Of a DNA stretch of 64,000 bases, positions 32,083 to 34,689 are shown one piece after another. The stretch spans positions 276,319 to 340,318 of the forward strand of contig JAPLKG010000014.1 in assembly GCA_026388185.1 (NCBI GenBank), read 5' to 3'. The stretch comes from Candidatus Eiseniibacteriota bacterium (lineage in GTDB: Bacteria > Eisenbacteria > RBG-16-71-46 > JAFGJU01). The first letter of the stretch is position 1. Every line of letters begins with the position of its first letter. The notes under the pieces are model-generated. The model saw only the letters and a program-made list of their open reading frames with translations. It did not search any database and was not told where the DNA came from. The position numbers and the translations under genes were made by a program.

Positions 32083-33186
32083 ATGACAGAAGACTTTCAT
32101 AAGAAACCCTTCGACGAGGGGACCATGGTGAAGCTCCGTCTTTTTGAGAACTACGTCGCGGAGTGGCTTCCGGTGTTCATATCCTCCGCCCAGGGAAAAC
32201 GAATCAATATAGTTGATTTCTTCGCGGGGCCGGGAAGAGATGTCAAGGGAGTAGACGGGAGTCCACTTATTGCGCTTAAACAGATTCGCAAATTCACCTT
32301 CCGCATTCGACAAAGCTCCAGTTTGTTGTACTTGCTTCTCAATGAGAAAGCCACACAGAAAGCGGCTACACTTCGCAGCATAATGGAAAGTCAGACAGTT
32401 GATGAGAAGTTGTGTAAGTGTGAAATTGAGGCACTGGATTTCGGGAAGGCCTTCGAGAAGTATTACCCACACCTTCTAGGGAATGCAAACCTGCTCTTCT
32501 TAGATCAAACCGGAGTGAAGTCCATATCGGACGACGTGTTTGTCAGAATCCTAGAGCTTCCGACGACAGACTTCATTTTCTTTATTGCATCCTCGTCGCT
32601 CCGTCGATTTGCCGATCATCCCTATTTCCATAGACACCTGAAGATTCCTAAGGGGACTATTTCAGCTCGGAGTTTCAATGAGACGCACCGCGTAGTTACG
32701 GACTACTATCGCAGTCTGGTCCCGCCTGGGAGGGAGTTCTACTTGGGCTCTTTTTCGATTAAGAAGGGCAGCAATCTGTACGGGATCATATTTGGATCGG
32801 GACATCCACTTGGAATGGAGAAATTCCTCAGGGTATGTTGGAAACTGCATTCAATTCGCGGTGAGGCGAACTTCGATATTGATTCGGAAGACATCAATGC
32901 CCGTTCACCACACCTGTGGAAAGAAATGGATAGACCTAAGAAGCTCGATCTCTTCGAACGGGAATTGCGGCAACGTGTACTGAAAAAAGAACTGAGAACC
33001 GATGGTGATTTATATCTATTTGCCCTCCGACGAGGATTTCGGCCATCCCATGCGCGCCACGTATTGAACCGAATGTTGAAGAAAAGCGAGGTAGCTATGG
33101 CTGAGCCGAGGGTTAGACCTAGGATCTCTCTGGATGGCTACAAGGCACCCCGGACCCTTGAGGTATTACAGAATGGCAATCTCTAG
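32083..33186 (+). CDS. Three-Cys-motif partner protein (TcmP-like). N-terminal SAM-methyltransferase-like motif I (NIVDFFAGPGRD).
   Basis: 367-aa ORF, 45 nt after dinB with no terminator. D-x-F-A-G-x-G motif. Overlaps the DUF5131 gene by 14 nt. Family assignment is by recollection of the TIGR04474 pairing with DUF5131. Confidence 0.5.
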   Translation: MTEDFHKKPFDEGTMVKLRLFENYVAEWLPVFISSAQGKRINIVDFFAGPGRDVKGVDGSPLIALKQIRKFTFRIRQSSSLLYLLLNEKATQKAATLRSIMESQTVDEKLCKCEIEALDFGKAFEKYYPHLLGNANLLFLDQTGVKSISDDVFVRILELPTTDFIFFIASSSLRRFADHPYFHRHLKIPKGTISARSFNETHRVVTDYYRSLVPPGREFYLGSFSIKKGSNLYGIIFGSGHPLGMEKFLRVCWKLHSIRGEANFDIDSEDINARSPHLWKEMDRPKKLDLFERELRQRVLKKELRTDGDLYLFALRRGFRPSHARHVLNRMLKKSEVAMAEPRVRPRISLDGYKAPRTLEVLQNGNL

Positions 33187-33907
33187 GATCGAATGGACAG
33201 AGATGTCATGGAACCCGGTCACGGGATGTTCCAAGCTGTCCGCGGGATGCAAGAACTGCTACGCCGAAGTCTTGGCCAAGAGACTGTGCTCTATGGGTTC
33301 AGAGAAGTACGTGAACGGCTTTGAGGTAGCGACGCATCCCGAGGCGCTCCCGGTTCCGTTCAAGTGGAAGACCCCCCGCATGGTTTTTGTGAACTCAATG
33401 AGCGACTTGTTTCACGACGCAGTACCCTTGAGCTTCATACTGGAAGTGTTCAAGGTCATGAACCAGTGCAGGCGGCACCAGTTTCAGGTATTGACCAAAA
33501 GGCCTAAGCGTCTGGTGTCGCTGGATCAAGTGCTTCCATGGAGTGCTAATATCTGGATGGGAGTCTCCGTTGAGAATGAGGAGGTGCTGGGTCGAGTAGA
33601 TTGGCTTAGGAAATGCAGTGCGAAGGTCAAGTTCTTATCGCTGGAGCCCTTGCTGGGTCCCCTCAACCATCTTTCCTTGGCTCACATTGATTGGGTGATT
33701 GTCGGGGGAGAGTCTGGCTCCCGTGCAAGACCGACTCGGGAGGAGTGGGTCTTGGAGATCCGCAACAAGTGTGCAGACACTGGGGTACCCTTCTTTTTCA
33801 AGCAATGGGGTGGGGCAAATAGGAAGAAGGCCGGGCGTCTATTGTGTGGGCGGACGTATGAGCAGATGCCACCCTTTGCCGCCGAAGAAAGCCTATTGCT
33901 GGCTTAG
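33173..33907 (+). CDS. DUF5131 (phage Gp37/Gp68 family) three-Cys-motif protein
   Basis: [32 protein letters not shown] signature N-terminus (CX6CX2C here). ATG 33173 overlaps the tcmP stop. Confidence 0.7.
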   Translation: [244 protein letters not shown]

Positions 33908-34026
33908 AGTTTCTTCGTAATCTATGTCCCAAGCGGACGCTGCAGCAGCAGCGTCGCAAGGCCTCGCCAGTGATTACTGCCGCTATGCAGAGCTTAGGAT
34001 GGATTTGGTCTCTTTTCTTTGAGTGA

Positions 34027-34689
34027 GTGTCCTGCATGAAGAATGATTGCTGGGAGATTGTCCTTGCAGAGGACAAATTCAATCAATTGAGAAATGATAA
34101 GGCCTTTCTGGCGATCTTGACGCTTGCGCGCTGTGTCAACGCGCTCAGATTTTGCCAGACCCCTTTGATCGAGTCCGAGCGCAAGAGTACTCCTGCTGTG
34201 AGTAGACAACGTCTCAATTCGGTCTTGCTTGCGAGTTCGGTCTTGTACGAAGGGTTGAAGGTTGCTGATTCGCTGGGACGTGATTTCAAGAGCCTAGTTT
34301 CCTTCCGGGAAGGGTTTGGGAAGCTGCTCAAGAAGCCAGAGACGAAGAAACTTAGGAGCGGGATCCTTTGGAAGATGAGGAATAAATTCGTGTTCCACTT
34401 CGATCAAGACGTAGCAGCCATGGCATTGACTCACTTCGAATTGCCTTCATACAAGTTCGCCGTGGGACAGGGAACAGCCCGGGGTCACGTTTACTATGCC
34501 CTAGCAGATGAGATCAGCCTTCATTATTTGCTGGACCCCGAGGGTGAGAAATCGAATGACCAACTGGAAAAAATATACATACAGTTCGCTCAGGAAATAG
34601 CAGATCTCATGGTTGAGTTTGACAATGCGGCAGAGGAGCTGATTGCCGAAACCTTACTACAGCAGGGCTGGTCATTAGGTGACGATTAG
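34027..34689 (+). CDS. Hypothetical protein (220 aa), no recognisable domain
   Basis: ORF with coding-like composition, follows the tcmP/DUF5131 pair. Confidence 0.4.
   Translation: MSCMKNDCWEIVLAEDKFNQLRNDKAFLAILTLARCVNALRFCQTPLIESERKSTPAVSRQRLNSVLLASSVLYEGLKVADSLGRDFKSLVSFREGFGKLLKKPETKKLRSGILWKMRNKFVFHFDQDVAAMALTHFELPSYKFAVGQGTARGHVYYALADEISLHYLLDPEGEKSNDQLEKIYIQFAQEIADLMVEFDNAAEELIAETLLQQGWSLGDD

Follow-up and report, generated by a model that had tools for sequence, protein, structure and literature searches.

The operon and its operator

The window, by which we mean the whole stretch of 64,000 nucleotides that was analysed, carries a run of plus-strand genes that begins with lexA (29751..30584; TIGR00498, 183 bits against a cut-off of 111, with matches to PF01726 and PF00717). 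The true start codon of lexA may lie downstream of the called one, because the family match begins only at residue 40. Next come a conserved 83-aa gene, s83 (30598..30849), which holds its place between lexA and dinB in nearly all relatives and has a weak DUF6504 match below the cut-off (PF20114, 19 bits), and dinB itself (30839..32038), which encodes DNA polymerase IV with IMS and IMS_C domains (NF002677, 329 bits against 256). The start of dinB is ambiguous, with gene calls on the same contig giving 30839, 30854 or 30878. After dinB lie tcmP (32083..33186), a DUF5131 gene of the Gp37/Gp68 family (33173..33907) and a gene for a 220-aa protein of a small uncharacterised family (34027..34689). 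The run closes with a DUF72 gene (34916..35692; PF01904, 211 bits), an mrfA-type DEAD/DEAH helicase gene (35693..38071; PF00270, PF09369, PF22982 and PF00271; TIGR03817, 795 bits) and an mrfB-type RNase-H-fold exonuclease gene (38043..38921; PF13482, 117 bits). An earlier sequence-only reading had placed every one of its open reading frames correctly, and its DUF72-mrfA-mrfB assignment is borne out by the profile matches, which include an MZB zinc domain in mrfA and RNase_H_2 in mrfB.

The best promoter match of the region, TTGACA-17-TAAAAT (29622..29650, plus strand; 11 of 12 promoter positions), stands in front of lexA. Between its -35 and -10 hexamers lies a putative LexA operator, the palindrome CTGCACAAATGTGCAG (29629-29644), which agrees with the LexA box that had been proposed for lexA-dinB. 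The sequence TGCAC-N4-GTGCA occurs exactly only once in the 64-kb window, and about 40 metagenomic relatives have the identical operator 14-mer ahead of lexA, with LexA identity down to about 47%. Fibrobacter LexA has been described as binding TGCNC-N4-GNGCA. There are no further LexA boxes before tcmP or DUF72 within the window. The 44 nt between dinB and tcmP hold no terminator-like site, as the earlier reading had it, no promoter-like site and no structure exceeding that of shuffled controls. In one relative (L120), the operon is split and a second box stands in front of dinB. With a single conserved box, and neither a promoter nor a terminator detected inside the unit, tcmP and DUF5131 are members of a predicted LexA-controlled unit through the operator inside the lexA promoter, much as first proposed. 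Since the two genes have no promoter, operator or terminator of their own, they should be transcribed from the LexA promoter and induced by DNA damage.

A coupled two-enzyme cassette

TcmP matches the three-Cys-motif partner protein family at well above the cut-off (TIGR04474, 132.8 bits against 53, model positions 3-261 of 263), so the family assigned to it earlier, which has roughly 3,500 TcmP representatives, stands. It models as an RlmJ/Trm1-like nucleic-acid methyltransferase fold over approximately residues 1-260, followed by a C-terminal winged helix at about 281-338. The Rossmann methyltransferase fold has its glycine-rich motif I, NIVDFFAGPGRD, which had been picked out as SAM-binding and is invariant across homologues. 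At motif IV, by contrast, the sequence is L-D141-Q142-x-G144, all invariant, in place of (D/N)PP(Y/F/W), with only the Asp kept; a divergent TcmP from Gordonia phages has D-P-T-G at this position. With DQxG rather than DPPY, it is not certain that TcmP can transfer methyl groups to an exocyclic amine. H6, K17 and G59-S-P61 are invariant and ordered like H6, K18 and S100 of RlmJ, and by inspection, together with a single segment weakly aligned by hhalign (E 0.022, probability 2%), the catalytic His, Lys and Asp of RlmJ appear to have counterparts in TcmP. RlmJ (the 23S rRNA m6A2030 methyltransferase) and Trm1 (the tRNA m2,2G26 methyltransferase), the closest structural relatives, both act on RNA. 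TcmP differs in motif IV and in lacking the inserted helical subdomain of RlmJ. It also has about 100 additional residues, among them the winged helix and a stretch, RGEANFDID, that is invariant, and it shows no significant match at the sequence level. A PDB sequence search with profiles of TcmP and DUF5131 found no relative for either.

For DUF5131, the Gp37/Gp68 assignment was likewise upheld by the profile check (PF07505, 315.3 bits against a gathering threshold of 28.9). The CX6CX2C motif noted at its N-terminus is present, and its cysteines (C19, C26 and C29) do not vary among 25 homologues; there are also an invariant C200 and a VGGESG element. This is a radical-SAM-like protein that departs from the canonical pattern, having CX6CX2C rather than CX3CX2C and no PF04055 match at E <= 0.01, and it is curated as a radical-SAM subgroup by both SFLD and RadicalSAM.org. 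The latter places it in Megacluster-5-2, listed beside spore photoproduct lyase (SPL; Megacluster-5-3), and DUF5131 groups with the spore-photoproduct-lyase/SplB-type radical-SAM enzymes. Foldseek gave no significant relative, returning generic TIM barrels and SPL at E 0.02-0.07. Compared with SPL and the SplB/PA0069/Rv2578c proteins (COG1533), which have CX3CX2C, DUF5131 is about 100 residues shorter, has invariant motifs of its own, falls below the PF04055 and NF033668 thresholds and is paired with a TcmP partner. Its nearest NCBIfam relative is Radical SAM mobile pair A (TIGR04471, 78 bits against an equivalog cut-off of 355), just as a PA0069-type protein found near the pair in Chitinophagaceae is nearest to mobile pair B (TIGR04470, 88 bits against 410). 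The likeness lies in DUF5131-like and SplB-like radical-SAM proteins travelling together on mobile DNA; the difference is that the DUF5131 protein of the window is partnered by TcmP and not by a second radical-SAM protein. The family is large: close homologues number over 8,000, 180 phage genomes carry copies, and identity remains at 62-67% across phyla.

The two genes overlap by 14 nt, given a DUF5131 start at the ATG at 33173, which is preceded by GAGG 10 nt upstream and is also the start in a separate, independent gene call for this contig; the translational coupling suggested earlier holds with this start. Pairing in other genomes was examined at 80 loci, the best matches to the TcmP of the window, and in 72 of 76 loci DUF5131 comes next after tcmP, at a distance of -29 to +8 nt. 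The pair is a self-contained, translationally coupled two-enzyme cassette. It had been called uncharacterised, which is right as far as experiment goes, the searchable literature yielding no functional study of PDC-M30, TIGR04474, PF07505 or COG4422, but the pair is already catalogued, by its NCBIfam name and as the PADLOC candidate PDC-M30, whose two profiles match here as adjacent genes (PDC-M30A, 394.8 bits; PDC-M30B, 376.2 bits). With known pairs of this kind (TIGR04474 plus PF07505), the window copy shares gene order, overlapping or abutting frames and the invariant CX6CX2C; unlike those in defence islands and prophages, it occupies the dinB/DUF72 junction of a LexA operon. Because the family is without an established function, membership is silent on mechanism.

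Insertion into an ancestral operon

The ancestral order, seen in relatives, is lexA-s83-dinB-DUF72-mrfA-mrfB. DUF72 directly follows dinB in L093, L094, L095, L104 and L108, in L093 so closely that the stop codon of dinB overlaps the start of DUF72. The cassette occurs between the two genes only in the closest relatives of the window (L088, L091 and L083/84), and it is therefore an insertion. A conserved DUF72 leader is still recognisable in the window, L088 and L095. What had been read as two units, lexA-dinB and DUF72-mrfAB, is one ancestral operon split by the cassette, which a recent ancestor in the Candidatus Eisenbacteria lineage gained at the dinB/DUF72 junction. Horizontal acquisition, as first suggested, is thus supported by synteny and not by GC content. 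The segment is indeed low in GC at tcmP (0.48, against a window mean of 0.545), but this is not specific to the pair and is weak as an argument for transfer: it was rejected because lexA (0.51), s83 (0.46) and dinB (0.50) are GC-poor like tcmP and DUF5131 (0.54) is average. No flanking repeats above chance, tRNA or recombinase gene mark the cassette. The window, L088 and L083/84 carry both cassette genes undamaged and with every invariant residue in place. In L091 one copy appears to be frameshifted, and in L090 TcmP is absent and DUF5131 adjoins a bona fide N6/N4 DNA methylase.

The neighbouring 220-aa gene had been taken for an orphan and a possible third component. Its product has no match in Pfam, NCBIfam, PADLOC or PHROG, but it is not an ORFan, with a family of about 79 members. 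As a partner it was rejected: the gene is missing from all 80 surveyed loci, is truncated in L088, the nearest relative, where 73 aa are left, and has homologues elsewhere that neighbour Mrr_N and MTase-REase genes, with neither TcmP nor DUF5131 present. The 220-aa gene is cargo inserted together with the pair rather than a partner dedicated to it. Cargo in the dinB/DUF72 slot is restriction-associated, consisting of this family in the window and of a type II MTase in L090.

Recurrent linkage to the SOS response

Is the placement under LexA peculiar to this lineage? A neighbourhood survey of the kind proposed with the sequence-only reading found lexA, umuD or Y-family polymerase genes within a few kb of the pair at about 15 of the 80 loci. 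SOS linkage arose independently in Fibrobacteres, Ignavibacteriales, Chitinophagaceae, Mucilaginibacter and Draconibacterium; every SOS-linked case among these loci comes from the FCB group and falls within a single TcmP subfamily. In the Fibrobacteres locus (L020), an exact TGCACTTAAGTGCA (at 9951) stands 50 nt upstream of tcmP, one of 3 exact matches to that motif in 1.36 Mb. The Ignavibacteriales locus (L044) reads lexA-DUF72-dinB-dnaE-like-tcmP-DUF5131 with overlapping stop and start codons, and in L055 tcmP comes directly after lexA. At 12 Chitinophagaceae loci, umuDC is divergent from an operon of a 2H-phosphoesterase gene, a PA0069-family radical-SAM gene, tcmP and DUF5131, with CTAA-N5-TTAG between the two; the same boxes stand directly at tcmP in Mucilaginibacter (L046). 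CTAA-N5-TTAG is the experimentally defined SOS box of Bacteroidetes (PMC8565304; the pair is unmentioned in that paper and its 25 supplements), and 9 of 31 exact boxes fall in the 1.8% of sequence immediately upstream of tcmP operons. Genes of the splB type are documented core SOS genes.

The pair has thus been captured by SOS independently in at least five lineages, and it stands under LexA-type operators in at least six lineages of the FCB group; its recurrence behind SOS operators suggests that it is part of the DNA-damage response. In this it resembles the accessory SOS cassettes umuDC and imuA-imuB-dnaE2 and the MrfAB mitomycin-repair pair, which are likewise mobile multi-gene modules that recur under LexA; in the window, dinB, mrfA and mrfB are already aboard besides the cassette. 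Those modules, however, encode known polymerases, helicases and nucleases, whereas tcmP-DUF5131 encodes two putative SAM-utilising enzymes. Over all loci there is no dominant conserved neighbour.

What does the cassette do?

We see about an even chance that the pair is a mobile two-enzyme cassette that acts on nucleic acid, probably DNA, and is induced by DNA damage. TcmP would be the substrate-handling subunit, binding nucleic acid, most probably DNA, and positioning or flipping out the target base, a role drawn from its RlmJ/Trm1-type fold, intact SAM pocket, RlmJ-like His/Lys/Asp and winged helix. DUF5131, from the spore-photoproduct-lyase/SplB branch of radical-SAM enzymes, would be the chemical subunit: a [4Fe-4S] cluster bound by its CX6CX2C motif would cleave SAM to give a 5'-deoxyadenosyl radical, and the radical would act on a damaged or modified base, reversing or altering it. 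More tentatively, the pair may carry out a hitherto unrecognised, oxygen-independent repair of DNA lesions by direct reversal or base modification, with TcmP presenting the base to an SPL-like enzyme, and may have spread laterally and been recruited repeatedly to SOS across the FCB superphylum.

Other copies of the pair live in different surroundings. One (L086) is accompanied by integrase, Prim-Pol, PIN, NucS and type I R-M genes; on Leptospira p74 the pair lies behind a type ISP R-M gene; L003 has a TIR neighbour; and the neighbour census also gave resolvases, MTases and one REase. A TcmP-DUF5131 pair is present in the integrase/immunity region of a Gordonia prophage as well. A tblastn search with the TcmP of the window against 50,697 phages had returned nothing, a null set aside as a false negative because a divergent TcmP exists in Gordonia phages. 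These restriction, defence and mobile settings weigh against the favoured reading, as do the PADLOC listing, the restriction-linked cargo in the same slot, the DQxG motif of TcmP, its weak hhalign match to RlmJ and its RNA-acting structural relatives. So does the range of the SOS-linked cases, which are limited to the FCB group and one TcmP subfamily in a set of 80 loci picked as best matches to the TcmP of the window.

Because copies occupy restriction and defence islands and prophages, anti-phage defence is a serious rival, if a somewhat doubtful one. The PDC-M30 cassette would modify or damage invading nucleic acid, or make a viperin-like antiviral nucleotide; its SOS wiring would switch it on at DNA damage or prophage induction, and the dinB/DUF72 junction would be a small defence islet. 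The PDC-M30A and PDC-M30B matches fit such a role, as do the island contexts, the Gordonia prophage pair, the restriction-linked cargo and a patchy, cassette-like distribution (159 Pfam families among 132 flanking proteins). On the other hand, PDC systems are candidates by association, and the pair is not accompanied by any effector gene such as a nuclease or toxin. Nor would one expect of a defence cassette that, in many genera of Chitinophagaceae, it should sit stably inside a splB-type repair operon shared with umuDC, or that SOS operators should stand directly at tcmP in L020 and L046. The nearest enzyme relatives, a DNA-repair lyase and base methyltransferases, also speak against it.

Could the enzymes simply modify nucleic acid, laying down an epigenetic or hypermodification mark by which the DNA of mobile elements escapes restriction, or acting on rRNA or tRNA, with SOS expression being incidental to the site of insertion? 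The closest TcmP folds are the rRNA and tRNA methyltransferases named above, DUF5131 is common among phages, and the DNA methylase in L090 and the pair copies that adjoin R-M genes would suit this explanation. It is nonetheless unlikely, since SOS capture recurs in at least five lineages, some with dedicated operators at tcmP, and accident is hard to credit.

In Chitinophagaceae the operon is headed by a 2H phosphoesterase gene, and 4 loci have RtcB no more than about 5 kb away; these neighbours could indicate an RNA rather than a DNA substrate. Together with the RNA methyltransferases among TcmP's structural relatives, they would allow an RNA-repair or RNA-damage module that works with 2H phosphoesterase and RtcB-type enzymes under genotoxic stress. 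We hold this to be very improbable: no RNA-repair genes lie near the pair in the window, L044, L055, L020 or L046, the partner genes encode DNA polymerases, a DNA helicase and an exonuclease, and DNA is the substrate of SPL and its SplB relatives. Least probable of all is a neutral or decaying passenger, selfish cargo of no benefit to the host, which the truncated neighbour in L088, the missing TcmP of L090 and the frameshifted L091 copy might suggest, but which fits poorly with the undamaged state of both genes, invariant residues included, in L088, L083/84 and the window, and with the conservation of DUF5131 across phyla.

Significance

Until now the pair has been labelled only as a defence candidate; its placement in the SOS response gives a concrete hypothesis of action on nucleic acid upon DNA damage. 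New here are the insertion into an ancestral operon, the conserved operator, the independent SOS linkage, the fold of TcmP and the grouping of DUF5131, and cultivable or tractable carriers, among them Leptospira biflexa with p74 and cultured Chitinophagaceae and Mucilaginibacter, are now identified together with defined operators. In some lineages the pair adjoins SOS-regulated SplB-type radical-SAM genes, which are themselves unexplained. If the repair reading is true, it would offer a first functional handle both on the phage Gp37/Gp68 family and on these SplB-type proteins. The cassette would then represent a new radical-based repair chemistry; if it serves defence instead, it would exemplify immunity that is induced by damage.

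Anatomy of the operon

The nine consecutive plus-strand ORFs between 29751 and 38921 are all present as the sequence-only reading had them, and Pfam and NCBIfam models identify lexA, dinB, DUF72, an MrfA-type helicase with an MZB domain and an MrfB-type RNase-H-fold exonuclease. The family assignments proposed for the pair behind dinB also hold: the 367-aa product of tcmP (32083–33186) scores 132.8 bits against TIGR04474 (cut-off 53), and the protein encoded after it (33173–33907) scores 315 bits against PF07505, the DUF5131 family (cut-off 28.9). The DUF5131 gene most plausibly starts at the ATG at 33173, which has a GAGG 10 nt upstream and is the start chosen by an independent gene call on the same contig; with this start, it overlaps tcmP by the 14 nt originally reported. 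Neither promoter-like nor terminator-like sites occur in the 44-nt gap between dinB and tcmP. Through to DUF72, no intergenic stretch folds better than shuffled controls or has a hairpin with a U-tract, which agrees with the earlier claim that no terminator intervenes.

The best promoter match in the region, TTGACA-17-TAAAAT at 29622–29650, encloses the palindrome CTGCACAAATGTGCAG. TGCAC-N4-GTGCA occurs once within the 64-kb window. About 40 relatives, with LexA identity as low as about 47%, keep it upstream of lexA, the footprint that would be expected of an autoregulatory LexA operator. The Fibrobacter LexA box is presumably of the same form. No second LexA box precedes tcmP or DUF72 in the window. 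In L120, one of the relatives, the operon is interrupted by an unrelated insert, and a second box, TGCACATATGTGCA at 12661, stands before the displaced dinB.

Nearly all relatives (L088–L136, L145) have the 83-aa gene s83 (30598–30849) between lexA and dinB. It matches DUF6504 only below threshold and seems to be a core gene, as yet unstudied, in the SOS operon of this clade. The lexA ORF begins with a Lys/Arg/Gly-rich extension (29751–29870) of about 40 residues before the LexA family match. The true start codon may lie farther downstream; otherwise, the LexA of this clade carries an atypical basic tail.

An insertion into an older operon

Among relatives of the operon gathered via LexA, the order lexA-s83-dinB-DUF72-mrfA-mrfB is found in L093, L094, L095, L104, L108, L109, L111 and L132, and represents the ancestral arrangement; in L093, the dinB stop overlaps the start of DUF72. 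Only the closest relatives (L088, L091 and L083/84, whose LexA shares at least 76% identity) have tcmP, DUF5131 and the 220-aa gene between dinB and DUF72. The cassette junctions show no repeats, tRNA or recombinase, and GC content does not set the cassette apart from its surroundings, so that the low GC once taken as its mark has to be given up. There is good support for how the cassette is built, for its insertion into an older SOS operon and for its dependence on the LexA promoter.

The same slot in L090 (12457–15006) holds DUF5131 without TcmP; next come a type II N6/N4 DNA methylase and a protein of 226 aa, possibly a restriction enzyme. Perhaps, then, DUF5131 can act without TcmP or with another methylase. 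Unrelated inserts of 2–7 kb lie between s83 and dinB in L097, L110, L114, L117, L120 and L128, and foreign genes seem to land in the operon repeatedly.

Is the 220-aa gene (34027–34689) a third component, as had been suggested? It has no family match, is absent from all 80 TcmP loci surveyed, and in L088 is shortened to 73 aa by a deletion that fuses the remnant to the DUF72 leader. Its 79 homologues (42–51% identity) include genes directly upstream of an Mrr_N-domain protein (L172 6001–7330) or an MTase-RE_Bpu10I fusion (L174 6001–8890), without TcmP or DUF5131, which suggests a restriction-associated accessory family. The gene is separate, island-type cargo.

The pairing itself is confirmed elsewhere. 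In 80 reference-genome loci from many phyla, chosen as the best matches to the window TcmP, both genes are present in 76; in 72 of these 76, DUF5131 comes next after tcmP on the same strand, and the spacing ranges from −29 to +8 nt (median 1). The flanks are extremely diverse (132 flanking proteins hold 159 Pfam families), and this near-constant pairing among changing neighbors identifies the unit as a self-contained two-gene cassette. The TcmP family is modest in size (3,533 representatives at E ≤ 0.001 among 1.84 billion), that of DUF5131 much larger (more than 8,000 close matches).

Links to SOS operators in other bacteria

A link to the SOS response recurs independently at several of these loci. 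In L020 (Fibrobacteres), tcmP is preceded at 50 nt by an exact TGCACTTAAGTGCA, and only three exact instances of this motif occur in the 1.36 Mb of surveyed DNA. In L044 (Ignavibacteriales), stop and start codons overlap along lexA-DUF72-dinB-(DnaE-like, 550 aa)-tcmP-DUF5131, and the promoter carries an ATAC-N4-GTAT palindrome. Twelve Chitinophagaceae loci have umuD-umuC divergent from a 2H phosphoesterase, a PA0069-family radical-SAM gene, tcmP and DUF5131, and ACTAA-N5-TTAGT elements in the shared intergenic region correspond to the Bacteroidetes SOS box that was defined by experiment, CTAA-N5-TTAG (PMC8565304). Of 31 exact boxes in the 1.36 Mb, 9 fall in the 24 kb of sequence directly upstream of tcmP operons; L046 (Mucilaginibacter) has tandem boxes right at tcmP. 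L055 (Draconibacterium) has a LexA-like gene immediately 5' of tcmP. All SOS-linked loci come from FCB-group bacteria, and their frequency of about 19% describes this subfamily only, since the loci are the best matches to the window TcmP.

The L044 palindrome, CCATAC-AAAT-GTATGG (5510–5545, upstream of lexA), has the same architecture as the window box with a different half-site. The 550-aa protein (8334–9986) corresponds to the N-terminal half of a polymerase of DnaE type (PHP and pol III alpha NTPase domain); its gene ends 4 nt inside the tcmP start, and the contig stops within DUF5131. The cassette may here have split a dnaE2 gene. In L055, an operator-like TTGTACTAT-N6-ATAGTACAA (2530–2560) lies upstream of the lexA heading the tcmP operon. 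In the Chitinophagaceae operon (L031 7984–15764; L017, L022, L050, L058), an SNF2/SWIM helicase or Dabb-domain protein follows DUF5131 in places. DUF72 adjoins SOS genes in three separate lineages, after dinB (window 34916–35692), between lexA and dinB (L044 6214–7125) and beside umuC in Chitinophagaceae (L017 4431–5393, L030, L031, L058), which suggests a widespread SOS gene in its own right.

The two proteins

The predicted TcmP structure has pLDDT 83 and pTM 0.82. Catalysis by RlmJ requires Y4, H6, K18 and D164, and its SAM contacts are H42, S100 and D164 (PMC3814359). The TcmP invariants H6, K17, D45-x-F47-x-G-P-G, G59-S-P61 and L-D141-Q-x-G follow in the same order. The likeness is weak at the sequence level (hhalign probability 2%), and the PPY of motif IV is replaced; in the TcmP of a Gordonia phage, this motif reads D-P-T-G, reminiscent of Trm1-type motifs. 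The C-terminal winged helix matches PF22560 below threshold.

DUF5131 is 62–67% identical across phyla, with invariant C19-x6-C26-x2-C29-Y-A-E, C200, NSMSDLFH, Q-x-LTKR, S-x-EPL-x-G, VGGESG and FFFKQWGG. Its predicted structure (pLDDT 76.5) has a low-confidence cluster loop, and the model gave no significant Foldseek match; sequence searches found no solved structural relative of either protein. Profile-profile comparison aligns DUF5131 with the PA0069/SplB-type proteins of Chitinophagaceae (E 7e-5, 174 columns; NP-x-x-GC...GC-x-x-CYA). RadicalSAM.org places DUF5131 in Megacluster-5-2, beside spore photoproduct lyase in Megacluster-5-3, the only substantive mention found. Full-text literature searches yielded no functional study of DUF5131, TcmP, PF07505, TIGR04474, PDC-M30 or COG4422, as the earlier statement that neither family has an established function implied.

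What does the pair do?

Anti-phage defense, possibly induced by damage, is a strong rival because of the restriction, defense and prophage contexts in which the pair is found, if less likely than a role in the damage response. Both proteins match components of PDC-M30, a PADLOC candidate defense system (395 and 376 bits). A Planctomycetota copy has integrase, Prim-Pol, PIN, NucS-like and type I R-M genes around it, the copy on Leptospira biflexa p74 comes after a type ISP R-M gene, and L003 has a TIR neighbor. DUF5131 is found in 180 phage genomes; in the integrase/immunity region of Gordonia phage Jablanski, it is convergent with an annotated "methyltransferase" that is TcmP (TIGR04474 117 bits, hhalign probability 92%). 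These genes, gp42 (DUF5131) and gp43 (TcmP), lie between integrases, a RelBE pair and the immunity repressor (L169, MT521999.1, 3480–5349). A tblastn search of phages with the window TcmP gave zero matches, a failure of sensitivity, this protein being divergent from that of Jablanski. On the other hand, a patchy, island-like spread is by itself compatible with repair: umuDC-type genes on plasmids and ICEs are mobile repair or tolerance cassettes. Modification alone, RNA repair (hinted at by an RtcB RNA ligase within about 5 kb of the Chitinophagaceae operon in four loci) and a passenger role jointly share what likelihood is left.

That the two proteins form an enzyme pair of the damage response is about an even prospect. 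They have been recruited repeatedly to SOS operators, beside translesion polymerases and SplB-type genes. The latter are documented SOS genes in many phyla, of unproven function, and splB is among the core SOS genes of Bacteroidetes (PMC8565304); the pair and COG4422 are absent from the text and 25 supplements of that study. A methyltransferase-fold protein with a DNA-binding-type domain, its tight coupling to a radical-SAM enzyme of the SPL/SplB branch and the repeated SOS recruitment together point to base-directed chemistry on nucleic acid as the probable function. The substrate is most probably DNA, and the setting most probably the DNA-damage response.
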